Positions 1 through 11,325 of a stretch of DNA of 11,347 nt are shown here, in pieces (within the stretch, counting starts at the first letter, position 1; each line of letters opens with the position of its first letter). The notes beneath the pieces were generated by a model. The model was not told the DNA's origin. It saw only the letters and a list, made by a program, of their open reading frames with translations, and did no database searches. Origin of the DNA: a virus; the UHGV virus genome UHGV-1347074, one strand, 5' to 3'. Position numbers and translations under genes: made by a program.

Positions 1-57
1 ATATAACGAGCCCCTCCTAAGGGCTAGTTGCAGGTTCGATTCCTGCAGGGGACACCA
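1..57 (+). tRNA. argW: tRNA-Arg (anticodon CCU), 3' portion only; the 5' end lies upstream of the window
   Basis: Anticodon stem-loop agccc/CTCCTAA/gggct at 9-25 with anticodon CCT at 16-18; T-arm gcagg/TTCGATT/cctgc at 30-46; acceptor 3' strand plus discriminator and CCA ending at 57. Matches from memory the E. coli argW sequence, with one possible difference. Confidence 0.85.
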
Positions 58-217: not shown

Positions 218-1393
218 ATGCTGCTATCTGACATCCAAATAAAAAGAGCAAAACCGAAGGACAAACCCTATACGCTTAACGATGGTATGGGACTATCACT
301 CCTCATCGACACAGCGGGCAGCAAAGGCTGGCGTTTCCGCTATCGCTTTGCAGGTAAGCCAAAGATGATTTCCTTTGGTGTATATGGCGATGTGTCGTTG
401 GCACAGGCACGTACCAAACGTGATGAAGCGCGTTCGATGTTGGCCAAAGGGATCAACCCAAGTGAAGCCAGAAAGGCAGATAAGATTGCTTTGCAGTTCG
501 CACATGAGAACAGCTTTGAGTCTGTGGCCAGAGAATGGCACTCATCGAAAAAAGCCACCTGGTCAGAGGGGTATGCAAAAGAGGTTCTCAATTGTATGGA
601 AAAGGATATTTTTCCTTTTATCGGCCAGCGCCCAATTGAGCAGATTGAACCACTAGAGCTGCTAACCGTCCTGCAAAAAATAGAGAAAAGAGGTGCGCTA
701 GAGCAAACCAGCAAGATCCGCCGCCGTTGTGGTGAAGTGCTTCGTTATGCTGTTGCCACTGGCAGAGCAAAGTATAATTTTGCACCCGATTTAGCTATCG
801 CACTCAACAAACCTAAAACTCAACACTTCCCGTTCCTGACTGAAAGCGAGTTGCCCGAGTTCGTCAATGCTCTGGATAACTATCAGGGCAGTTTAGTCAC
901 CAAATACGCCACGCAGCTGTTGATGCTAACAGGCGTGCGAACAATTGAACTACGTGCAGCGGAATGGGCTGAGTTTGATTTAGATAATGCCTTATGGGAG
1001 ATCCCCAAAGAACGGATGAAGAAACGCCGCCCCCATCTGGTTCCGTTATCTACTCAGGCGATCAGCATCCTGAAAAAGCTGCAAGAAATAACTGGGAATT
1101 ACAGCCTCGTTTTCCCTGGGCGAAACGACGTCAGGAAACCAATGAGCGAAGCCAGTATCAACAAAGTGATAAAGCTGCTTGGCTATCATGGTCGGTTAAC
1201 GGGTCACGGCTTCAGGCATACCATGAGTACTATTTTGCATGAACATGGTTTTGAAAGCGCCTGGATTGAAATGCAGCTTGCGCATGTTGATAAGAACTCT
1301 ATTAGAGGGACTTATAATCATGCGCAGTATTTAGAACCGAGAAGAAAAATGCTAACGTTTTATAGCAACCTTATATATAAATCATATATATGA
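218..1393 (+). CDS. int: Tyrosine site-specific integrase, P4 family (about 392 aa from the first ATG)
   Basis: N-terminus from the ATG at 218 (MLLSDIQIKRAKPKDKPYTLNDGMGLSLLIDTAGSKGWRFRY...) matches the conserved P4-type integrase N-terminal domain. C-terminal catalytic region has HGFRH ... LAHVDKNSIRGTYNHAQYLEPRR (box II and tyrosine). The ORF-track start at 170 is a TTG and was not used. Confidence 0.9.
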   Translation: MLLSDIQIKRAKPKDKPYTLNDGMGLSLLIDTAGSKGWRFRYRFAGKPKMISFGVYGDVSLAQARTKRDEARSMLAKGINPSEARKADKIALQFAHENSFESVAREWHSSKKATWSEGYAKEVLNCMEKDIFPFIGQRPIEQIEPLELLTVLQKIEKRGALEQTSKIRRRCGEVLRYAVATGRAKYNFAPDLAIALNKPKTQHFPFLTESELPEFVNALDNYQGSLVTKYATQLLMLTGVRTIELRAAEWAEFDLDNALWEIPKERMKKRRPHLVPLSTQAISILKKLQEITGNYSLVFPGRNDVRKPMSEASINKVIKLLGYHGRLTGHGFRHTMSTILHEHGFESAWIEMQLAHVDKNSIRGTYNHAQYLEPRRKMLTFYSNLIYKSYI

Positions 1394-2443
1394 TCTTTTT
1401 ATATCCGTTAAAATAGTATCTACATCGGTAAATGTTATGTTTATACAATCAATTAACTCAAATACTTGCTCTTCAATAAGAATAAAATCATTTTTTGGTC
1501 CAGTACTAATTTTTATACCAAGATCCCCAACTTTCTCCAATAAACTAACCTGATGATTTGTGTAAATATATTTTCCTCCGGGCTCTGTTATCTCTCTATT
1601 TGCAGAAAAAACAACATCAGCTATCGCATCAACTTTTAGCTTATACGAAGAAGAAACAGTAACATCACCTTTCTTCGAAAGTGGGAATATTAAACTATAC
1701 CATTTATATATATTCACCTTGTCTGGAGAAATAAACTTTCGTTTGTTTATTTCTGCATTCATATAATCTCTAAACATATTTAGATGTGAAATATGATTTG
1801 TTAGATTACTATTTTTTACGCCAGCTTTATAAGTCAACAACGCTATTCCAATACCACCAACGGTGGTGATCAATGTAATCAACCATGCTATTGACTGAAG
1901 GATAATTGATATGCCATTAAATCTACCAAAAAAGTAAGAAACACACTTATCTGATAGGCAAAATTCTTTCACATACAGTTTTTCATTATAGATCGTAATG
2001 CATAGTATGATGAGACAAGAAATGATACCAAGCATAAAAATAGCAAGGATAGTAATAACCAAGACTTTTAGCTCTTTTTCTTTCCCAAAATCCCCCAAAG
2101 GTAATTTATTAACCAAAGAACTAGTAATTTTATAAATATAAATAATAGTAGTTTTAATGCTCTTTATTAAAGCTGAAGGAGAATTAAGAACAAAGCAATA
2201 CAATGTATTAGCTAAAAATTTAACTCGTATAAAAATAAAGCTTCCTCTAATCTTTACCTTCCTATATTTTCTTTTTAGTTCAAATACTATTTTTCTACCT
2301 TCATCTGTCCCCAGAAGAACTAATCCAATATGTGATACTATATCCCTTAAGCTAACTCCCACCCCAATAAACGCCTTATGAAAAGATGACAAACTGCGTT
2401 TGAGAGATTCATAATTAGATTTTATTTCAGCTAAGCTACCCAT
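1382..2443 (-). CDS. Predicted two-transmembrane-helix membrane protein, candidate retron effector (353 aa)
   Basis: Two long hydrophobic segments (VLVITILAIFMLGIISCLIILCITIY and ISIILQSIAWLITLITTVGGIGIALLTY) separated by a short loop. Its ATG shares one base with the RT stop (TGATG on the - strand), indicating translational coupling. Very AT-rich, like the RT gene. Confidence 0.75.
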   Translation of the reverse strand: MGSLAEIKSNYESLKRSLSSFHKAFIGVGVSLRDIVSHIGLVLLGTDEGRKIVFELKRKYRKVKIRGSFIFIRVKFLANTLYCFVLNSPSALIKSIKTTIIYIYKITSSLVNKLPLGDFGKEKELKVLVITILAIFMLGIISCLIILCITIYNEKLYVKEFCLSDKCVSYFFGRFNGISIILQSIAWLITLITTVGGIGIALLTYKAGVKNSNLTNHISHLNMFRDYMNAEINKRKFISPDKVNIYKWYSLIFPLSKKGDVTVSSSYKLKVDAIADVVFSANREITEPGGKYIYTNHQVSLLEKVGDLGIKISTGPKNDFILIEEQVFELIDCINITFTDVDTILTDIKRSYI

Positions 2444-3639
2444 CAGTATTTAACCTTTTGAAGACGATCTCTGAATCCTTTTTCAATCAATAAAAAACCG
2501 GGAGTTCTTCTTAAAATAATAAGATTATATAGTGTAAGATCATATTTTTTCTTGTAATAATCTTTTTTAGAGTTCCCACCTTTATAGGAGTTCTCTAAAA
2601 ATTTAATAGCCCTATCAATTTTAACAATATCTCTTTTTGCTGCCTTAGGCTGAATATCTTTTAGTCTTAATGATAGCACCTTATATTTATTGTGATTAAG
2701 CCTACCTAATTTGTTCACGCGCCCAACACATCTATTATACTCTATCCTATAGGCTACACTTGTTATTGAGTTATTTTTCTTTGCCAGTTTTTCTAAATTA
2801 TGCACAGACGCTCGAATACGTCCGACCTCATCAGAAGGTAAGCGTGGTTCATTAAATGAGATTCGTAACCCATGTACTTTTAATGATTCAGTTGATATAT
2901 TGTGTACTTGAGTTTTATCTTCATTTATAGGTAAATCTTTACCAGCAAGCATATCTTTAATATGATCTAAAATCTGATTCATATTGTAGTTAACTAATTT
3001 TGATGAAACTGTAATATCATCTACCAGTCTCGTATAGACTAATTTCTTCCTTTCTGCTCTATTTACAATGTCAGATTCAACATCAAAAAGACATAACGAT
3101 GCTATATAACTAGAGGTCAAAGCGCCCTGAACAATAGTGTCGTCATAACAGCATATATCAGTTAAGTACTCTAATGCTTCGCCTTTAAATTTTAAAACCT
3201 TAGAAAATATACTATATACTATATCTCTATGAATATTATCAAAAAAATTTTTGATATCTACTTTAAGTATTGTTTTTGCATTACAGTGCTTACGGGCACA
3301 AGCGATATAATGCCGCTCAATTCCTTTTTTTTTCTCATCTTTATTGGTTGGAACTGAGCCATAAATGTAATCTGGCCATAATATCAGCTCTTTAAAGATC
3401 CTATTGTTTATCCTTTTTTGAATACGCCTTATTAGCTGGTGTGGATCATAAACATCTCTAAGTTCACCATTTATTTTTTTTACTTGCTTTTTCTTGTATC
3501 TTTGGTGGGAAGGCATTGCAATAGCAGTTTTTAAATCTGCTAACGTAATATCCAAGCAAGAACTTAAAGATTGCAAAGATCTGAGAGATTGTGCACCAGG
3601 TTTTTTTATAGGATTACGGGCAACCATAATATCTTCCAT
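2443..3639 (-). CDS. Reverse transcriptase, retron-type (398 aa)
   Basis: RT motifs readable in the translation: ILKVDIKNFFDNI (motif A aspartate), ICCYDDTIVQGALTSSYIASL (motif B), YTRLVDDITVSS (motif C) and a downstream KVHGLRIS at the position of the retron VTG motif. Overall pattern resembles Ec86-type retron RTs from memory. Confidence 0.85.
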   Translation of the reverse strand: MEDIMVARNPIKKPGAQSLRSLQSLSSCLDITLADLKTAIAMPSHQRYKKKQVKKINGELRDVYDPHQLIRRIQKRINNRIFKELILWPDYIYGSVPTNKDEKKKGIERHYIACARKHCNAKTILKVDIKNFFDNIHRDIVYSIFSKVLKFKGEALEYLTDICCYDDTIVQGALTSSYIASLCLFDVESDIVNRAERKKLVYTRLVDDITVSSKLVNYNMNQILDHIKDMLAGKDLPINEDKTQVHNISTESLKVHGLRISFNEPRLPSDEVGRIRASVHNLEKLAKKNNSITSVAYRIEYNRCVGRVNKLGRLNHNKYKVLSLRLKDIQPKAAKRDIVKIDRAIKFLENSYKGGNSKKDYYKKKYDLTLYNLIILRRTPGFLLIEKGFRDRLQKVKY

Positions 3640-3960: not shown

Positions 3961-4299
3961 CACATCACCTACCAAAATTGTAATGGACTGACCAAAAAGG
4001 CACTACACCGCACCCGCCTGCGGTTTTCATATCACTAAAATTTTTCAGTTGTGATTTTTTACAAACGATACCGCCAGCCCGCGCCCGTGCTGGGGATACA
4101 CTGCGAGGCAGGAACTGAAAAGAATGAAAAGAAATTCAGCTTTTTTCAGTTTTACTGTCCGTAGTATCTATGGCCTGAATACGCAACTCTATGATATTAA
4201 ATGGATAATTATTTTTAGGTGTGTGATTTTATGAAGTTTTGGAAACATGAAAAACATAACAAATTGAAAAATAATAATTTTATGTCCGTATAAACTGAA

Positions 4300-4340
4300 A
4301 TCCGGTGTTCAGGTTCCGGGAATGGATCGGCCATTCCCGA
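4300..4340 (-). terminator. Candidate transcription terminator downstream of the Ogr/Delta gene
   Basis: 9-bp perfect hairpin cgggaatgg/ccattcccg (4316-4340) just 3' of the stop at 4349 on the - strand, followed by a moderately U-rich stretch (AUUUCAGUUUAUA). The U-tract is not immediately adjacent, so this is a weak call. Confidence 0.3.
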
Positions 4341-4348
4341 CGCATACT

Positions 4349-4621
4349 TTACCCATTCTTTTGCGCAGCCAGCAGCAACTTTAAAGCCTTTTCCCGTTCC
4401 TCGGGTGGAATTGCATCAATTAGCTCTTTAACCCTCCCCTGCCCGTTCAGCGCGCTTGGACTAACGGAATGGGAGAAAGCAACATTCATCACAAACGAGT
4501 GACCGCACTCCACATTAGAGCAATAGCAGTACACATCGTACAGTTGTGGGTGTTTCCTGTTTGTTTTACCTATCCGCGCTACTGCCTGACATGTGGGGCA
4601 GTACATTCTCATCATCTTCAT
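4349..4621 (-). CDS. Ogr/Delta-family zinc-finger late-gene transcriptional activator (single-domain, about 85-90 aa)
   Basis: C-x2-C-x22-C-x4-C spacing (MYCPTCQ ... YCSNVECGHSF) as in P2 Ogr / P4 Delta. The start is ambiguous among several in-frame ATGs (4621 to 4606); homology favours MYCPTCQ. Confidence 0.85.
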   Translation of the reverse strand: MKMMRMYCPTCQAVARIGKTNRKHPQLYDVYCYCSNVECGHSFVMNVAFSHSVSPSALNGQGRVKELIDAIPPEEREKALKLLLAAQKNG

Positions 4622-4687
4622 CGTTCTGTGCCCTATACTGTTGCCCGCCAGAAGAAGGGATTTGACTCCCTACCTCTTGTTCTGAAC

Positions 4688-4880
4688 GTGTAACACTGGT
4701 AACACGTGTAACGCTATTGATTTAAAAGGATTTAATCTGTTACCAGTTAGCAAAATCAAGAGGTAACGCGTGGTAACACACCATTTTTTGTTACCTCTGT
4801 TACCAGTCAGTATTTTTGACTGGTAACACTGAAGAACCGTATCAGTAGCGGGTGTTACCTCTGTTACCAGTGTTACCTCA
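4688..4880. repeat. Iteron cluster, candidate replication origin (P4 ori/crr-like) for the adjacent primase-helicase
   Basis: At least 12 copies of GGTAAC(A/G)C / its complement TGTTACC in both orientations. An 18-bp direct repeat TGTTACCTCTGTTACCAG occurs at 4789-4806 and 4853-4870. An 11-bp perfect inverted repeat lies at 4799-4809 / 4817-4827. No ORF spans the region. Confidence 0.6.
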
Positions 4881-4903
4881 TATAAATAAGACTCACGCGA
4901 TAA

Positions 4904-7591
4904 TTACTCAGGTTCGGCGCTTCCCAGTACCTGTGTATTGAACTGGTACACACGTTTAAGCCCTATTTCTGGCAGGCGAATGCTGTTTTGCGTCCGGCCA
5001 TCTTCACCGGGTTTCAGCCAGCCCGCGTCCACACACAACCTGGCCACCTTACGCGAATCAAATCCCTTACAGATCTCCTTCCAGCCTGACGGGAGAACGT
5101 AGAACGTCACAACCGGCTCTGTCACGTTGTCTCCTTTATCGACTTTTCTGAATCCCATCATTGAAACAGGCCGGTTCCTGTCGTCATTCCAGTCAGCAAA
5201 CCGACTGAACTGATTACGCGTCATGAAGTCCCGTACCTGTTCAAGTGCCGCTTTATCTTCCTGATTAGCTGTATGGCCCCGGTCAGCCATCCATGCAGCC
5301 AGACAACTTTGAGCGGCACGAAAGGCCTCTCCCTCCGGCCATCCTGTGATGCCCGCTTTTGTGGCCAGCTCCCCGGCCATAGCAACCAGAGCAAAACGGG
5401 TAACAGCCCGGCCAACCTGATTCCCGGCATTTTCCGGCGTCAGCCTCCGGGTGTACTCTTTCAATAAGGCTTTCGCCTGGCTGGTCAGTTCCGGCAGATC
5501 AGCGGTCAGGCAATGCAGCCAGTCGCGGAATGGTGCACCATGATAATGCGCTACATGCTGCTCAAGATGCTCAGCCAGGGTTTTCCCGCTACTGAAGCCA
5601 TGAAGTTCTTCAAACACGCCATACTTGCCCGAATCGCTTGGGATCTGGATCATTCTGACCTCAACCCCGGCATACGTACGTTCCCCGGCGCTTGCCGCAT
5701 GTTCTACCAGTGACAGTTCCCCGGTGGACAGAAACAACAGATTCCAGCGGTTGGTTTCCCTTACAGAACCATCTGTTCTGGCTCTGGCTTTGCCCTGCCC
5801 GTTAGCCAGCATATAAGCGATATTCCCCGCCTCCCTGCCGTCAACCTCCCGGATTTCATCCAGCATCAGCGTGGCATCATTGCGGCGGCTCGCCGTTCCT
5901 TCTAAGGCATTCCCCGTCGCCCGCCACGTATGCCAGAAATCTGTTCCACCACATACTGATGCAGCCACTTTCATCGTCGTGGTTTTGCCGTCCGTCGATT
6001 CCCCTTTGAGGTGATAACCTCCACCGCCGATACCAACCAGTTTCAGAAGGGGGGCAGCAAATGCCAGGCTCACCGCAAAGGCCAGACGGGCATTCTTTAT
6101 GCAGTAACGGCCAAGATTTTCACGCCATTCCTCTGATGTACCGCTGACACGAAAATCACGCCCCTGCACGCTCGATGTTTGTAAGATGACTGACTGGGCT
6201 TCGCGCCCTATCACTTCATCCTGGAGAACGTAAACCCCGCCGTGCCAGCCCGTTTTATTTACACAGGTAACTTTTCTGTCCGGTTTACACAGCGAGATAT
6301 ATTCCATCAGGAATGCTCTGGCCATACCGTTAATGTTGATGTAAGAAAGCCCGTTAACCAGCAGAACGCGGCGCAGTTCTTCCCCGCTGCCACCCAGCAT
6401 CTCCATCGGCATTGCCCATTTACGGCTGTTTCCGTTGGTATCTTCCCATTCCAGCAAACGCCCGTAATTACTCCCATCAGCATCACTGGTGATTGCCGTC
6501 ACCCGCAACGGGCTGCAAATTTTGATATTGCGTATCTCCGTATCACCATCAGACTTATTAACCAGCTTGTCGTACCACAAATATTCTTTTGTCAGCCGGA
6601 ACCCTTCTGGTAAACGGGTCTGCCCTTTGCCATGCAGCGTCATTTCTTCACGAAAGGCATCTCTCGCCCGTTCTTTCCCCACTTCCTGCCGATAGTCATC
6701 CCAGTCAGCCTTATGGCGTACCGGAGGGAGCGTTACCCAGCCATCCACCGCTTTGGCGGCTTTCTCTGCCTGAATACGCCCGGTGTTTTCTTTCCCGTCA
6801 GCCAGATCATTATCTCCGGCCAGAATGATCCGGGTTTCCGGCCAGCGTTTTCGGATCTGCTCCGTCACCTTCAGTAAATTGGTGGCAGCGACAGCCGCCA
6901 CGATCCATCCTTCAGTCAGCAGACTGACGGTAAGCGCCGTGGCAAAACCCTCAGTGATAATCACCTGTTCAGGTGTTTCAGCGGGTATATCGGTCAGGGC
7001 AATGAATGCGCCAGACAGCTGGCTACCGGGCAGCAGACTTTTATCCCCGTCAGGATTGATAAGCTGACCACCGGTAATATTCCCGGAAATATCCGTCAAC
7101 GGCAGCAGTAATGAACCGGAGGAAAATGTTATTCCGGCCAGATTCAAAGGTTGTGACAGCAAGGGAAGTGAATACCCGTGTAAGCCCTTGTTTGTCAGAT
7201 AGACCGGCTCACCATTGCAGGACTGCTGTCTGAGTCTGGTATATCGCTCCGCACCCGCTTCTTTTCCTGTGGCCTTTTTCCTAGCGGGCAAAGCGGGCTT
7301 CTCCTGTATTTCTGGTAATGCAAGCGCCTCAGATACCATCCCGGCGGCTTCTTTTATCTTTCTTCCTGTCACCAGACGAACCAGATCAAGACCATCGCCA
7401 TGACCGCACTGATTACAAAACCACGTCCCACGCCCCGCTTTATCGTCCAGTCGAAAGCGATCTTTGCCACCACAGGCAGGGCAAGCCCCATGATGTCCTG
7501 CGGACGGTACTTTGATACCTAATGCTGACAGGATATAAGGCCAGCGCCCAATCGCAGCCCCGGAAATAGTGGATACAGACAGTGTTTTCAC
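4904..7591 (-). CDS. Alpha-type DNA primase-helicase (895 aa): zinc-binding domain + TOPRIM primase + P-loop helicase
   Basis: N-terminal CPACGGKDRFR ... WFCNQCGHGDG zinc-binding motif; TOPRIM-like ITEGFATA ... ILAGDND; Walker A GESTDGKT. GTG start at 7591 preceded by AGGAGG (7-nt spacer) and overlapping the upstream gene's stop (GTGA). Confidence 0.9.
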   Translation of the reverse strand: MKTLSVSTISGAAIGRWPYILSALGIKVPSAGHHGACPACGGKDRFRLDDKAGRGTWFCNQCGHGDGLDLVRLVTGRKIKEAAGMVSEALALPEIQEKPALPARKKATGKEAGAERYTRLRQQSCNGEPVYLTNKGLHGYSLPLLSQPLNLAGITFSSGSLLLPLTDISGNITGGQLINPDGDKSLLPGSQLSGAFIALTDIPAETPEQVIITEGFATALTVSLLTEGWIVAAVAATNLLKVTEQIRKRWPETRIILAGDNDLADGKENTGRIQAEKAAKAVDGWVTLPPVRHKADWDDYRQEVGKERARDAFREEMTLHGKGQTRLPEGFRLTKEYLWYDKLVNKSDGDTEIRNIKICSPLRVTAITSDADGSNYGRLLEWEDTNGNSRKWAMPMEMLGGSGEELRRVLLVNGLSYININGMARAFLMEYISLCKPDRKVTCVNKTGWHGGVYVLQDEVIGREAQSVILQTSSVQGRDFRVSGTSEEWRENLGRYCIKNARLAFAVSLAFAAPLLKLVGIGGGGYHLKGESTDGKTTTMKVAASVCGGTDFWHTWRATGNALEGTASRRNDATLMLDEIREVDGREAGNIAYMLANGQGKARARTDGSVRETNRWNLLFLSTGELSLVEHAASAGERTYAGVEVRMIQIPSDSGKYGVFEELHGFSSGKTLAEHLEQHVAHYHGAPFRDWLHCLTADLPELTSQAKALLKEYTRRLTPENAGNQVGRAVTRFALVAMAGELATKAGITGWPEGEAFRAAQSCLAAWMADRGHTANQEDKAALEQVRDFMTRNQFSRFADWNDDRNRPVSMMGFRKVDKGDNVTEPVVTFYVLPSGWKEICKGFDSRKVARLCVDAGWLKPGEDGRTQNSIRLPEIGLKRVYQFNTQVLGSAEPE

Positions 7592-7998
7592 AGCAGCACC
7601 TCCTGACCTTCCGGCTTCACAAATTCAAAACCTTCGGGTAGTTCGCCATCAGGTGCACCGAAAATAATATCCCGGTAAACCTCACGCATCTCTGTGACAC
7701 CAAAAACTGACAGGCGAATATTTTCTGACATAAAGCCCGGTTTAAGCATTTTTTCCAGTTTCTCTGCGGCCAGTATGCAACCAGCATCAGCCCCAAACTC
7801 ATTCACCCACGGCATTTCAATATGGTAAATAATATTGCTCACCACTTTTTCGTGGGTGAGTTCTATTCGTTCGCCATCTTCAATATAAACAGGTTCATTA
7901 TGAACACGCTCCATTAAGGAAATGAATGCATCAGCAATGTAGTACCGTAAGACTGCTGTTCGTAAAGCATGCGCCTTTAAATTTTGATTATTATTCAT
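7588..7998 (-). CDS. Hypothetical protein (136 aa from the ATG at 7998), first gene upstream of the primase
   Basis: ATG at 7998 preceded by GGGAGAG; start overlaps the stop of the upstream 78-aa gene (ATGAATAA) and the stop overlaps the primase GTG. The longer TTG-initiated ORF to 8058 was not used. Confidence 0.65.
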   Translation of the reverse strand: MNNNQNLKAHALRTAVLRYYIADAFISLMERVHNEPVYIEDGERIELTHEKVVSNIIYHIEMPWVNEFGADAGCILAAEKLEKMLKPGFMSENIRLSVFGVTEMREVYRDIIFGAPDGELPEGFEFVKPEGQEVLL

Positions 7999-8227
7999 CG
8001 CGCATCTCTCCCTTAATTGTGCTGGTTTCCTTAACAACGCCATCAAGTTGTTCGGCAATACAGGCCACTAAAGCCGCAGCGCCTTCCGCTGAAACAGTTC
8101 TCGCTCCATTCACTGTGGGAACGGACAGGACCTCTGCAAGAAACTCACTGGCCAGTGCCGCCCGTAACAGACGACTCTCACCCAGTTCGCTCAATATGCA
8201 GCCTTGCTTAAAATTCATGGATTTCAT
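7991..8227 (-). CDS. Hypothetical small protein (78 aa)
   Basis: ATG at 8227 preceded by GGAGGTG with a 5-nt spacer; overlaps the upstream gene stop (ATGA) and the downstream gene start. No recognisable motif. Confidence 0.6.
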   Translation of the reverse strand: MKSMNFKQGCILSELGESRLLRAALASEFLAEVLSVPTVNGARTVSAEGAAALVACIAEQLDGVVKETSTIKGEMRDE

Positions 8228-8427
8228 GCAACCACCTCCCCGGCACTTTTCACAGGGATGTGGGCAGCAAAGCTCAGGATAAATTCAGTGGCAAGTTTAA
8301 GGCGTGCAGCATGCTCGCAGTCTGCGATTACACGCACAGGACGTGGACGGGCATCACGGTCTGTACGGCGAACAGCCAGAAAGACAAAGATAAATTCAGG
8401 GTGAGATAAAGCAGGGACTGTAGCCAT
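8224..8427 (-). CDS. Hypothetical small protein (67 aa), first ORF of the replication operon (positionally analogous to P4 kil, function unknown)
   Basis: ATG at 8427 preceded by GGAGG with an 8-nt spacer. The ORF track extends this frame to 8814 (196 aa), but that extension crosses a repeat- and hairpin-rich leader and looks non-coding. Confidence 0.5.
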   Translation of the reverse strand: MATVPALSHPEFIFVFLAVRRTDRDARPRPVRVIADCEHAARLKLATEFILSFAAHIPVKSAGEVVA

Positions 8428-8429
8428 AA

Positions 8430-8725
8430 TGGCAACCTCCGTTAGATAGCGGGTAACGCTACCACCGGAGTTCCTACGCTCATGGGTGGTAGCCCAGACG
8501 GGGGTAGGAATACCGGCTCTAACGGATACCGGCCAGCCCGAAAGCTGCCCCGCCTGGACTACCATAATTCTGATGATGTGGCGTAAAAAATAAAAACATG
8601 CAGTCAGCCACCACACCATAAATTTTAGGTGAGTCAAAGCTACGACACAAAAAAACACGCCTGGCGCGTGTTGTGTCGCCGTTAGATTACACGGGTTCCT
8701 ACGCCCGGCTGCCGATTTTGCGGCA
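8430..8725 (-). ncRNA. Candidate structured leader / immunity RNA region (P4 CI-RNA-like; Rfam C4-type), boundaries approximate
   Basis: Direct repeats CCGTTAGAT...GTTCCTACGC at 8439-8479 and 8679-8708. An internal segment (8499-8516, containing GTAGGAA) is largely complementary to both copies. Strong hairpins at 8458-8466/8485-8493 and 8643-8678. Confidence 0.3.
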
Positions 8726-8733
8726 ACCTTTAA

Positions 8734-8763
8734 ACTATATCCCGCGCATTCCTGGTGAGGCAA
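8734..8763 (-). promoter_or_regulatory. Candidate sigma70 promoter for the leader and replication operon
   Basis: On the - strand, TTGCCT (-35; + strand 8758-8763), an 18-bp spacer, then TATAGT (-10; + strand 8734-8739). Predicted start near 8726, just upstream of the first repeat copy. Confidence 0.3.
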
Positions 8764-8866
8764 GAAATTTATAACCGAAAACTGAACATTGCCTGGATTA
8801 ATTAACGCTGGCATGCTTAAGCCTCTGCTTAAAAATAGTTCTTCATTTTTCCTGATGCTGTAAACG

Positions 8867-8888
8867 AGACCCGCCTCTGAGCGGGTCT
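8867..8888 (-). terminator. Candidate terminator hairpin downstream of the capsid-homolog gene
   Basis: Stem agacccgc/gcgggtct with a 6-nt loop, 14 nt past the stop at 8902. The U-tract on the - strand is weak (CGUUUACAG). Confidence 0.3.
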
Positions 8889-8901
8889 TTCTGTCGCGAA
8901 G

Positions 8902-9906
8902 TCAATCAGCAAACGTCAGGGCGCTCTCATCAACAGCCGCGTACAGTTCAGGTTCACCGAGTGCATAGCCTTCATTGCGCAGGTAGGAATGTACGTATTC
9001 ACTGTTTTCATCATCAAACTCAGCACGAAACCACCGTGTTATCGCCTGAGTGTAAATATGCAGATTATTCAGCGTCGTTACTGCCAGACGCTTACCCGGC
9101 ATAAACGGGGGAATAAACGCAAAGCGGCCAGCAACAGAACTTGTAGCCATCTGTGCAGCATTCACATCAGCCGGGCGGTCTGCGGCATTAAATAACTTCA
9201 GGCGTTGATGTGCTGCCAGCTCTGCCCCAACCAGAACAACCAGACGGGGATCTTCACGAAACTGCTCAGCAATAAGCTCAGTAATCAGATGGTTGGCCAT
9301 CGCATCAATATTTTTCCAGGTGCCAGTCTCTCCCAGCGTGACAGGCTCAGAGATGATTTGCTTTCCGTTCCCGTAGGCTTTCGCCAGTGCATGCCAGCCA
9401 ATATTGACATCCTCGCCTTTTTTATTGATTTCCGGGTTTGTAGTATTTGCAATCGACACACCATTGAAACCGACCCGCAGCATGTCCAGCGCATATGCCT
9501 GGGCAAAAAAGCTCTCAACCGTTTTCTCAAACCCATCCGGCACGCCGGTATGGTAAATATGAGACATATCGGAATAGCTGATCCGGGCGCAGGTATCCGT
9601 CTCTGTCAGAAAGAACTCCGTACCATTGATTGCCATTTTTTTGTGGAAACGGCCACCATCCACACGTCCGGTATGCAGTTCACTGGCACCAATATTGACT
9701 GCATTACCTGACACGGCGTTAACATCACGTAGCGTGATATTTTTAATAAGCCACCCGGATTCCAGAATTGACGTACGCAGTATATTTTCAGTGGGTTCGC
9801 TTAATGCAAAGCGTCTTTTTGATTCCTCCTGATAGTTAGTGCCAGTAACGAATTTATTATGATAACGACGTGCTGCGTCCGGCCTTTCAGTTTTGAAGGC
9901 ATACAT
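8902..9906 (-). CDS. P2 GpN-like major capsid protein homolog (334 aa)
   Basis: Several blocks align by eye with P2 gpN as recalled from memory: GFNGV, DV.(I/V)GW, EDPRLVVLVGAELAA (vs EDPDLVVIVGRQLLA) and TTLNNLHIY (vs TKLENLSIY). ATG at 9906 preceded by GGTGA. Confidence 0.7.
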   Translation of the reverse strand: MYAFKTERPDAARRYHNKFVTGTNYQEESKRRFALSEPTENILRTSILESGWLIKNITLRDVNAVSGNAVNIGASELHTGRVDGGRFHKKMAINGTEFFLTETDTCARISYSDMSHIYHTGVPDGFEKTVESFFAQAYALDMLRVGFNGVSIANTTNPEINKKGEDVNIGWHALAKAYGNGKQIISEPVTLGETGTWKNIDAMANHLITELIAEQFREDPRLVVLVGAELAAHQRLKLFNAADRPADVNAAQMATSSVAGRFAFIPPFMPGKRLAVTTLNNLHIYTQAITRWFRAEFDDENSEYVHSYLRNEGYALGEPELYAAVDESALTFAD

Positions 9907-9929
9907 AGTTTTTTCACCTTTTTTAGTAT

Positions 9930-10790
9930 TTAAGAAAAGATTTTATTTTTGTACTCAGTAACCCGATTGTATTTCATTACATGCTCAACATAATCCCGGT
10001 CACTTACGACTGAACGTAATACATAATTATCTGCTCGATAGTACTCCCTGTAAGCCATAGCTCTTGCCATTCCACCGTTATTTAATACATAACGATCAGT
10101 TGGAACGCTACAACGGCTAATAATTTCATTCACGGAATCAGACAAAGATTTGAGTGCGTCTGTAATAAATTTAATATCACGGACAACGTCACCGTCATTA
10201 AATACAGAAATAAAATCAGCAGGGATCTGGCCGGATTGAGGAAATATGTTCAGTAAACGCTTCTCGACTCCCTTACCAATGTAGTTCACTTCATCGGCCA
10301 GTACGCCCGGTAAAAGCTTGATCGTGCTCAGTCGGCTATGTTGCTCATTCAGCCGGGAAACAGCCAGATGGTAACACCGTTCAGCATCCGCTCGTTCAGC
10401 ATGCCCCGTTTTATTCGTTTTGGCTTCAGCAATGCTACTGACGCCGTTTTTTGAGAATGTGCTTTTCCATGCAACTTCCGCATTTGTCACTTCACGCTGC
10501 CGGAAAGATAACTCTTCCTCTTCCTGACGACACAACTGGGCATAACGGCTTAGGAGCAGGTTGATCTCATTCGCCACAGCTTCCGTATCAGGTACTGTTA
10601 ACCCCGTAAGTGAATACAGCTTTTCACCTTTAGCACGCAGCTTATTCAGTGAATAGATTTCGATAATACGCACAATACAGGCTGTGTCGCTATGAGTTTC
10701 TTTAAATGGTCTTACTTTGTAACTATCTAACACCGACACATGTTCGTTCTTAATTGATGCCAATTTTTTCTTAAAAACATTGTCAACCAT
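9930..10790 (-). CDS. Hypothetical protein (286 aa), immediately upstream of and co-oriented with the capsid homolog
   Basis: ATG at 10790 preceded by GAGGTG; 23-nt gap to the capsid gene. Lower G+C than the flanking capsid and primase genes. No motif recognised; not similar by eye to P2 gpO. Confidence 0.8.
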   Translation of the reverse strand: MVDNVFKKKLASIKNEHVSVLDSYKVRPFKETHSDTACIVRIIEIYSLNKLRAKGEKLYSLTGLTVPDTEAVANEINLLLSRYAQLCRQEEEELSFRQREVTNAEVAWKSTFSKNGVSSIAEAKTNKTGHAERADAERCYHLAVSRLNEQHSRLSTIKLLPGVLADEVNYIGKGVEKRLLNIFPQSGQIPADFISVFNDGDVVRDIKFITDALKSLSDSVNEIISRCSVPTDRYVLNNGGMARAMAYREYYRADNYVLRSVVSDRDYVEHVMKYNRVTEYKNKIFS

Positions 10791-10807
10791 ATATTTGCCA
10801 CCTCAAT

Positions 10808-11035
10808 TTAGGAGTTTAATTTTCTATTGAGAATATTCTTCTCTATCCATTCATTAACTTCATGCTCCACCCATGCAACAGAACGAGAACCGATAGAAAC
10901 TTGGTTCGGAAATTCATCATTCTTTATCTTTAGATAAATTGTTGACTTGGGTAAGCCAGTCAAATTAATCACTTCTGATATTCTCAGAAGTCTATATCTT
11001 TTTTGGGGTGCGTTTTCCCGAGGCAATAAGCTCAT
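10808..11035 (-). CDS. alpA: AlpA-family prophage regulatory protein (HTH; excisionase/transcriptional regulator-like), about 75 aa
   Basis: Pattern RLLRISEVINLTGLPKSTIY ... FP ... G.RSVAWVEHEVNEWI matches the AlpA family. ATG at 11035 preceded by GAAGGA; the ORF-track start at 11050 is a GTG five codons upstream. Confidence 0.8.
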   Translation of the reverse strand: MSLLPRENAPQKRYRLLRISEVINLTGLPKSTIYLKIKNDEFPNQVSIGSRSVAWVEHEVNEWIEKNILNRKLNS

Positions 11036-11145
11036 GGCTATGTCCTTCACATTAGATATTTATACTAAGACTTAATTAGTCTCTATTGGGTGTATATATA
11101 CTTGCACAGAAGAATTAATACGTAAAGAATGACACTTTCAAACTT

Positions 11146-11162: not shown

Positions 11163-11290
11163 GGTAAATAATGGTGAATAATAGTGAATGTTAGGGAATA
11201 TTACTGAGTGACAATCTTTGCCAGTGCTTGTTAATCGCTGATAACGATGAAATTTGATGAACAAAATATGTAACAATTTGTAAATTAAAA

Positions 11291-11325
11291 GGCTGGGCTG
11301 GGCTGGGCTGGGCTGGGCTGGGCTT
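11291..11325. repeat. Pentanucleotide simple-sequence repeat (GGCTG)6 plus one imperfect unit
   Basis: Six perfect tandem GGCTG units at 11291-11320 followed by GGCTT; read directly from the sequence. Confidence 0.9.

Follow-up and report, generated by a model that had tools for sequence, protein, structure and literature searches.

T286, a candidate scaffolding or size-determining partner of the capsid protein of a P4-like satellite

The P4-like satellite around T286

The DNA analysed here (the window, 11,347 nucleotides at its full length) corresponds to a P4-like satellite of ~11 kb located at tRNA-Arg (argW) between yfdC and dsdC, with a tRNA-Arg fragment at positions 1-54. An alpha primase, an Ogr/Delta activator, a Vis/AlpA gene, a CI (C4-type) RNA, an integrase at a tRNA and a helper-type cos site were all found and place the element among the P4-like satellites. 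The alpha-like primase/helicase (positions 4904-7591, minus strand) contains Zn-ribbon, Toprim and DUF927 domains in Pfam and shares 38% identity with P4 alpha over 322 aa, and the Ogr/Delta-like late activator (4349-4621, minus strand) matches PF04606 with an E-value of 5e-14. A tyrosine integrase and a DUF5375 gene are also encoded. The conserved backbone of the satellite spans window positions ~3990-10756, and a variable hotspot lies between int and cos, occupied in the window by a type IV (Ec48-like) retron and in strain FDAARGOS_1261 by a DUF4435 and AAA-ATPase pair (PARIS-like).

A P4-type immunity region (8482-8727, minus strand), 72% identical to the P4 cI region in an alignment of 423 nt, holds the C4/CI antisense RNA (8482-8569, minus strand; Rfam RF01695, 81 bits) and isrK (8650-8727, minus strand; Rfam RF01394, 71.8 bits). 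It lies directly 3' of a capsid gene (8902-9906, minus strand), and upstream of the latter is the 286-codon gene studied here, T286, inside the conserved backbone and outside the hotspot. The earlier note had called the neighbour of T286 a capsid homolog, and the 334-aa protein is indeed a full-length P2-family major capsid protein (PF05125, E 9e-67; phrog_70, E 7e-85) that covers positions 15-325 of the 327 in the PF05125 profile. It is 25% identical to P2 gpN and 49-51% identical to the capsid proteins of ESSI-2-like peduoviruses.

P4 is the textbook example of capsid piracy. Searches with P4 Sid and Psu by tblastn and phmmer gave no match, either in the window or across the related loci. 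As alpha, delta, vis, the C4 RNA and cos are nevertheless present, the capsid-directed functions of P4 must lie elsewhere.

A probable cos/packaging site of the ESSI-2 type (3991-4152, no strand assigned) marks one end of the conserved backbone. Positions 4010-4152 are 76% identical to the last 143 nt of ESSI2_ev015 (E 2e-22), with the match running to the final base of that record, and the Nextera adapter at the start of the record suggests that it ends where the DNA molecule itself ends. Homology between satellite backbones stops ~20 nt beyond the cos-like match, at ~3990, which would fit a cos site that has an overhang of ~19 nt and lies next to the hotspot, as in P4. The nearest phage capsid proteins, at 49-51% identity, are those of Cronobacter phage ESSI-2, the Escherichia ESSI2_ev phages, which belong to the Peduoviridae (Quadragintavirus), and Yersinia phage vB_YenM_324. 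The satellite and an ESSI2-like prophage occur together on one 5.4 Mb contig and in three E. coli genomes (LR778142, LR778146 and LR778152); far fewer genomes hold such a prophage (29-48) than hold the satellite (431-450). Taken together, the sequence comparisons make ESSI-2-like peduoviruses a likely helper candidate. A small shell would be expected, since a satellite of ~11 kb stands to a candidate helper of ~30 kb as P4 does to P2 in genome size.

Sequence, distribution and predicted fold of T286

T286 occupies positions 9930-10790 on the minus strand, with its ATG at 10790-10788 and its TAA at 9932-9930. As read from the sequence, a Shine-Dalgarno element, GAGGTGG (10798-10804, minus strand), stands 7 nt 5' of the ATG. 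Upstream, across a gap of 17 nt, is the stop of an alpA/vis-like gene (10808-11050, minus strand; PF05930, E 6e-20; 46% identity to P4 Vis), which heads the co-directional array and for which the RefSeq annotation in locus L001 sets the start ATG at 11035. Downstream, 23 nt separate the end of T286 from the ATG of the capsid gene at 9906, which has a ribosome-binding site of its own, AAGGTGA (9920-9914, minus strand). The gene is therefore as first described, that is, an open reading frame of 286 aa with a strong ribosome-binding site between alpA and the capsid gene; the accompanying remark that its G+C content is lower than that of its neighbours is half right, since T286 (0.419) lies below the capsid gene (0.484) and above alpA (0.366). 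Scans for promoters and terminators stayed at chance level. The P2-type late-promoter dyad TGT-N12-ACA was found three times against 2.8 expected by chance, and the copy at 11091-11108 is neither kept in other loci nor present in the O/P promoter region of ESSI2.

T286 is a real gene under purifying selection. Pairwise comparisons with relatives gave dN/dS values of 0.15-0.22, against 0.07-0.10 in the capsid gene, and no competing open reading frame of at least 50 aa was found on the opposite strand within it. Of 5426 complete E. coli genomes, 450 (~8%) carry the T286-capsid-alpA stretch. Homologues fall into 109 clusters at 90% identity, all of them unnamed 'hypothetical proteins' from Enterobacteriaceae, and a profile search of 1.84 billion representatives returned 54 clusters at 50% identity. 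Full-length members nearly all measure 276-312 aa, and the distant ones that carry a name (Yersinia, Serratia, Morganella and E. albertii) extend the family to the Enterobacterales.

The earlier note had recognised no motif in T286 and no likeness to P2 gpO, and had proposed a remote-homology search in which clear homology to a known, unrelated family would speak against a capsid-associated role; both observations were confirmed and no such homology was found. T286 and 38 diverse members gave no significant match to Pfam or PHROGs, apart from singleton coiled-coil noise, and T286 gave none to NCBIfam or PADLOC. A match to phrog_6880 (E 6e-4) was rejected because it came from a single family member only. 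Neither an enzymatic nor a DNA-binding domain was detected in the Pfam scans. When all PDB sequences were searched with a T286 profile, nothing matched, and tblastn against 50,697 phage genomes was equally negative. PF05929 (Phage_GPO) was not found in T286 or in the 38 members, no alignable gpO protease domain was found in T286, and hhalign returned probabilities of 0.06% against P2 gpO and 1.6% against the gpO profile. The corresponding values were 0.5% for P4 Sid and 0.16% for the Sid profile, and 0.3-0.7% for Psu, for which T286 has no Pfam match either. A C-terminal resemblance between T286 and helper gpO (K-x-K-[IL]-F-S versus K-F-x-[FY]-[LI]) was discarded as too loose and not significant. 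T286 is the founding member of an uncharacterised family confined to this P4-like satellite group.

Structure prediction, likewise proposed at the outset, gave a confident all-alpha model. AlphaFold2 reached a pLDDT of 88.3 and a pTM of 0.82 with close homologues, and 92.7 and 0.85 with a diverse alignment. Both runs place the same helices (residues 35-62, 73-113, 120/127-157, 200-227 and 233-285), and in the model these form a helical core from which the second and third extend as a long hairpin, whose tip combines the lowest model confidence with the highest variability. T286 thus has the alpha-helical make-up with coiled-coil or hairpin elements, and the place next to a capsid gene, that are features of phage scaffolding proteins. 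These are a class by function and do not form a single homologous family; they occur in procapsids, are needed for the shell to assemble correctly and leave it before or during packaging.

Association with the capsid gene and the gpO position

The T286-anchored set comprised 11 genome loci, retrieved with a nine-sequence T286 alignment, 21 IMG/VR loci and the E. coli reference. Every locus with enough downstream sequence has a PF05125 capsid gene 9-30 nt downstream of T286, the only exceptions being a T286 and a capsid gene that each carry a frameshift. The pairing is kept in members from Yersinia, E. albertii and metagenomes that are only 15-20% identical to the T286 of the window (P0139, P0144, P0153 and P0157). 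These distant islands have other integrases and regulators, and their gene order is constant: T286, the capsid gene, small open reading frames, an epsilon-like 'Derepression' gene, the primase and Ogr/Delta.

In P2, the gene upstream of the capsid gene encodes gpO, which consists of an N-terminal serine protease domain (Asp19/His48/Ser107) and a C-terminal domain that binds the capsid protein and promotes procapsid assembly. We therefore also ran the search in reverse, fetching 80 metagenome loci with the satellite capsid protein as the query. All 36 satellite-type loci carry a T286-family open reading frame directly upstream of the capsid gene, whereas all 43 P2-like phage loci carry a gpO homolog in that slot and lack T286, in the order gpQ, gpP | gpO, gpN, gpM, gpL. 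The capsid proteins of the satellites are at least 53% identical to that of the window and those of the P2-like phages 48-52%. It follows from this clean split that T286 sits in the exact position of the scaffold/protease gene.

A further indication comes from a 173-aa gene found straight after the capsid gene in 14 of the 36 satellites. Its product aligns to residues 11-147 of P2 gpO only (33-39% identity, E 1e-26), that is, to the protease domain, and so this sister clade is without precisely the scaffolding domain of gpO. The clade of the window does not have even the protease gene and would have to use the helper's protease. The pairing of T286 with the capsid gene is invariant, and T286 and the gpO scaffold domain are mutually exclusive. 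Judging from this distribution, the lineage appears to have lost the gpO scaffold and gained T286 in its place.

T286 evolves faster than the genes around it. Among Enterobacteriaceae loci, T286 proteins are 46-52% identical where the capsid proteins are 72-84% and the primases 80-89% identical, and T286 identity falls to 18-24% where the capsid proteins are 40-70% identical. When pairs were binned by capsid identity (0.7-0.8, 0.8-0.9 and 0.9-1.0), T286 identity was 0.45, 0.57 and 0.74; in the same bins, the C-terminal scaffold domain of gpO in related phages gave 0.47, 0.63 and 0.81, and the gpO protease domain 0.63, 0.77 and 0.86. At equal capsid divergence, T286 therefore diverges about as fast as the gpO scaffolding domain.

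Recombination divides the protein into two parts. In a natural recombinant (L050), the capsid gene is 97% identical to that of the window while T286 is only 52% identical, which means that most of T286 is not tightly matched to the capsid allele. Homology between L050 and the window starts at ~10114, about residue 225, and a second locus (L043) has a similar boundary at ~10103. From this breakpoint, the C-terminal ~60 codons of T286 (9930-10115, minus strand, from about residue 226) stay with the capsid gene, and the N-terminal 225 residues are exchanged. Many scaffolds bind the capsid protein by their C-terminal end. The recombinant fits a C-terminal segment of ~60 residues as the candidate capsid-binding end of T286, with the qualification that the physical adjacency of this segment to the capsid gene confounds the comparison.

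Possible roles in capsid assembly and relation to other satellites

That T286 is a scaffolding or size-determining protein peculiar to satellites, working together with the satellite capsid protein, has, in our estimation, roughly an even chance of being correct. Most likely, T286 would replace the scaffolding half of gpO and stand in functionally for the Sid/Psu module of P4. The two proteins would be made from one transcript starting at or upstream of alpA. T286 would then bind the capsid protein, probably through the conserved C-terminal ~60 residues, self-associate through its helical bundle and long alpha-hairpin, and direct the formation of small shells, sized for the ~11 kb genome, on the helper's portal. 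Maturation proteolysis may be left to helper gpO or, in the sister clade, to the satellite's own 173-aa gpO-protease gene, and the helper terminase would fill the shells via the ESSI-2-type cos site before helper tails are added. We infer the contact between T286 and the capsid protein, its internal or external placement, the formation of small capsids, the timing of expression and the identity of the helper. For the earlier suggestion of a scaffold or size-determination factor this means that the association with the capsid gene is strongly supported, by virtue of the invariant pairing, the gpO slot, the exclusion of the scaffold domain and the scaffold-like divergence, and that the assembly role itself is one that we infer.

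Several observations count against a scaffold. Neither in sequence nor in fold does T286 resemble gpO, Sid, Psu or a scaffold of solved structure. Most members of its family have a basic pI (range 6.1-9.3), unlike the acidic gpO (5.2) and Sid (5.8). The fold predicted for T286 is compact and rigid, in contrast to the many scaffolds that are flexible, extended molecules. A very different T286 allele is tolerated on a nearly identical capsid gene in L050, and the search for the late-promoter dyad established no P2-type late signal. Finally, the capsid-like genes of a lambda-helped E. coli PICI were reported to be dispensable for interference and transfer (PMC6092414, PMC10111431).

The same data can be read as T286 acting from the outside, as a Sid-like cage or a Psu-like decoration protein that sets or stabilises a small capsid. 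P4 Sid is an external size-determining scaffold and Psu a decoration protein and Rho inhibitor, and both bind gpN shells from outside; T286 would do so on shells of satellite capsid protein, helper capsid protein or both. The pairing with the capsid gene fits this equally well, the element has neither sid nor psu, T286 shares with both proteins an all-alpha make-up with long helices, and its near-neutral to basic pI is nearer to that of Psu (7.8) than to that of gpO. We nevertheless consider an external role unlikely, as profile similarity to Sid or Psu is absent and T286 lies in the gpO slot, 5.3 kb from delta and beyond alpha, outside any sid-delta-psu operon, and as the sister clade, in which just the scaffold domain of gpO is missing, suggests that an internal scaffold was replaced.

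The rapid divergence of T286 relative to the capsid protein, its dN/dS of two to three times that of the capsid gene and the independent exchange of its N-terminal 225 residues in both L050 and L043 would also suit an interference or adaptor protein that binds gpO, the helper capsid protein, the portal or the terminase, and factors of this kind are common in satellites (PMC6893505). Such a protein would block the assembly of large capsids or recruit helper parts to the satellite capsid protein, with the swappable N-terminal ~225 residues setting specificity for the helper. The gpO scaffold domain, however, diverges equally fast without any need of an arms race, T286 is under purifying selection with no whole-gene sign of positive selection, and the model does not demand the strict gpO-slot position, all of which leaves this reading distinctly unlikely in our view.

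T286 might instead have a core function in regulation, or another one unrelated to the capsid, within the early/left operon. It could, for example, sense the helper, act in derepression or assist replication or partition, and its adjacency to the capsid gene would then reflect operon history only. Its place directly after alpA/vis, in an array that holds regulatory and replication genes in P4, and its compact, confidently predicted fold and basic pI are in keeping with this. Yet related islands already have epsilon-like 'Derepression' proteins, AlpA/HTH regulators and Ogr/Delta, the pairing persists to 15-20% identity through rearrangement of all upstream genes, T286 and gpO exclude each other from one slot, and the Pfam scans offer no DNA-binding or enzymatic domain, so that we regard a regulatory role as improbable. 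An unrelated defence or anti-defence cargo gene, which the earlier note had also considered, would suit an uncharacterised family with a G+C content below that of the capsid gene in satellites that carry a retron or a PARIS-like pair, but T286 has no PADLOC match and belongs to the conserved backbone, not to the int-cos hotspot, and it occurs in every member of the lineage and never apart from the capsid gene, which makes this very improbable.

Set against known systems, a scaffolding or size-determining T286 would resemble each of them in part. Like P2 gpO (PF05929), it fills the slot immediately upstream of a P2-family capsid gene on the same strand, and it has a similar size (286 versus 284 aa), a helical make-up and the divergence rate of the scaffolding domain; unlike gpO, it lacks a protease domain, is basic and occurs in satellites only, and the two share no sequence or profile similarity. 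With P4 Sid and Psu it has in common that it is encoded by a P4-like satellite, is predicted to be all-alpha and presumably acts on a P2-family capsid protein, whereas homology and the sid-delta-psu location are missing and T286 always accompanies a satellite capsid gene, of which P4 has none.

Precedents from other satellites, SaPI1 CpmB and SaPIbov5 Ccm, support the scaffold reading. CpmB is an internal scaffold encoded by a satellite that has only a C-terminal motif in common with the helper scaffold (PMC6893505). Like CpmB, T286 would be a helical satellite protein that replaces the helper scaffold in small capsids (PMC6893505); CpmB, however, is a small dimer that works on the helper capsid protein and needs CpmA, whereas T286 has 286 aa and a capsid partner from the satellite. 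Ccm, a capsid homolog of satellite origin, redirects the size and shape of the capsid (PMC8569155). It parallels the T286-capsid module as a satellite copy of a helper-type capsid protein in a cos-packaged satellite, but is reported without a partner gene in the scaffold slot and fills pentamers in helper-capsid shells (PMC8569155). Satellite-encoded capsid proteins are also a feature of the cf-PICIs, which encode the full set of capsid, portal, protease, connectors, TerS and TerL (bioRxiv 10.1101/2022.09.08.507074). The lineage of the window, in contrast, encodes only the capsid protein, T286 and sometimes the protease; as it retains a helper-type cos site, it still needs the helper's portal and terminase. 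Pasteurella PmCI172, which forms small capsids and has a capsid homolog, was considered as a relative and set aside, as its helper is Mu-like and no link was found.

Capsid genes in Gram-negative PICIs were already known (PMC6092414, PMC10111431). In the literature, including the main surveys of P4-like elements and PICIs, we found no description of a P4-like lineage that combines a capsid gene with a T286 partner. In these surveys a P4-like element is recognised by Psu, Delta, Sid, AlpA, epsilon/ash, alpha and Int, and the lineage would accordingly score under the thresholds or only just reach them. Since current satellite finders recognise P4-like elements by Sid, Psu and Delta, elements with a T286-capsid module have likely been missed or mis-typed.

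What T286 would add to the known cases is satellite capsid redirection built on a protein family without known relatives. Our more far-reaching proposal, that T286 represents a new, non-homologous class of scaffolding or size-determining protein with which the satellite builds small shells of its own capsid protein on a stolen portal, is put forward tentatively. The lineage would then stand between the capsid hijackers (P4 and SaPI1) and the capsid-autonomous cf-PICIs, and exchange of the N-terminal ~225 residues might be a means of tuning compatibility with helpers. As these satellites carry retron and PARIS-like cargo, knowledge of their packaging and helpers bears on the spread of defence systems. 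If T286 does scaffold the satellite capsid, it would be a third independent solution to the redirection of capsid size in Gram-negative satellites; the lineage would offer a natural experiment in which the protease and scaffold functions of gpO have been separated, and the T286-capsid pair, a compact system of only two genes, would lend itself to the engineering of small transducing particles.

Candidate packaging site and helper phages

At 76% identity (E 2e-22), window 4010-4152 aligns with the 143 nt that close the record of Escherichia phage ESSI2_ev015, its final base included. Homology of the satellite backbone stops at about position 3990, some 20 nt past this match, and on this sequence comparison window 3991-4152 is a probable cos/packaging site. 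Together, the cos-like match to the phage end and the backbone limit point to ESSI-2-like peduoviruses (Quadragintavirus) as the helpers of the satellite. We observed that the RefSeq record of ESSI2_ev015 (NC_049395.1, L126) opens with a Nextera transposase adapter, TCGTCGGCAGCGTCAGATGTGTATAAGAGACAG, at L126:1-48.

The satellite module is present in 431-450 of 5426 complete E. coli genomes versus just 29-48 with ESSI2-like prophages, indicating that most satellites exist without a resident candidate helper; the two occur together in LR778142, LR778146 and LR778152. In strain FDAARGOS_1261 the alpha-like primase of this island (L001:8105-10792) carries an internal stop and is annotated as a pseudogene, so not every satellite copy may be functional. 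A few members of the family of T286, the 286-aa protein encoded directly upstream of the capsid gene, are credited to non-enterobacteria, namely P0085 and P0194 to the Firmicute 'Vagococcus sp. WN89Y' and P0169 to 'Vibrio vulnificus'. Since the island on the contig assigned to Vagococcus sp. WN89Y (L010) shares its enterobacterial-type backbone with the others, mislabelling or assembly contamination probably accounts for these records.

Island edges and hotspot cargo

The left junction of the island consists of a 3' tRNA gene fragment (window 1-54, plus strand; Rfam tRNA, 33.7 bits), identified as tRNA-Arg by comparison with the FDAARGOS_1261 locus. At the dsdC-proximal edge, beyond alpA, lies a pentanucleotide repeat of about 6-7 copies of GGCTG (CCCAG on the minus strand; window 11290-11325), and no attR, as a copy of the tRNA 3' end, was found within the window. 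The cargo of the variable hotspot includes a type IV, Ec48-like retron on the minus strand (window 1382-3639), comprising a reverse transcriptase (2443-3639; PADLOC RT_IV, E 4e-182) and a 2TM effector (1382-2443; NCBIfam retron_Ec48_2TM, E 2e-64); its msr/msd RNA was not located. The same place in strain FDAARGOS_1261 is occupied by a PARIS-like pair of DUF4435 and AAA-ATPase genes.

Immunity region and the capsid 3' end

Shortly past the capsid stop codon, a G+C-rich hairpin on the minus strand (GACCCGC-TCAGAG-GCGGGTC, window 8864-8886) with only a weak T tract may act as a partial terminator or processing site between the T286-capsid unit and the immunity region. There, a 196-aa ORF named 'Icd-like' in RefSeq (window 8224-8814, minus strand) overlaps two P4-type immunity RNAs, C4/CI RNA (8482-8569) and isrK (8650-8727), and its span contains a good intrinsic terminator (8672-8654). 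The Icd-like NCBIfam domain model covers residues 141-188 only.

A recombinant T286 allele and a separate gpO protease

The capsid genes of the window and of the related locus L050 share 97% identity, whereas the two T286 sequences (window 9930-10790 and L050:4095-4980) share only 52%. The L050 allele is chimeric, with a recombination breakpoint near residue 225 (window ~10114), and L043 shows a similar boundary in T286 at window ~10103.

In a sister satellite clade (L068-L078, L080, L083 and L123), a 173-aa gene lies immediately 3' of the capsid gene (for example L068:5995-6517). Its product aligns to residues 11-147 of P2 gpO (E 1e-26), with a residue aligned to each of gpO Asp19, His48 and Ser107. 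Judged by this alignment, the gene is the gpO protease domain by itself, a natural separation of the scaffold/protease fusion.
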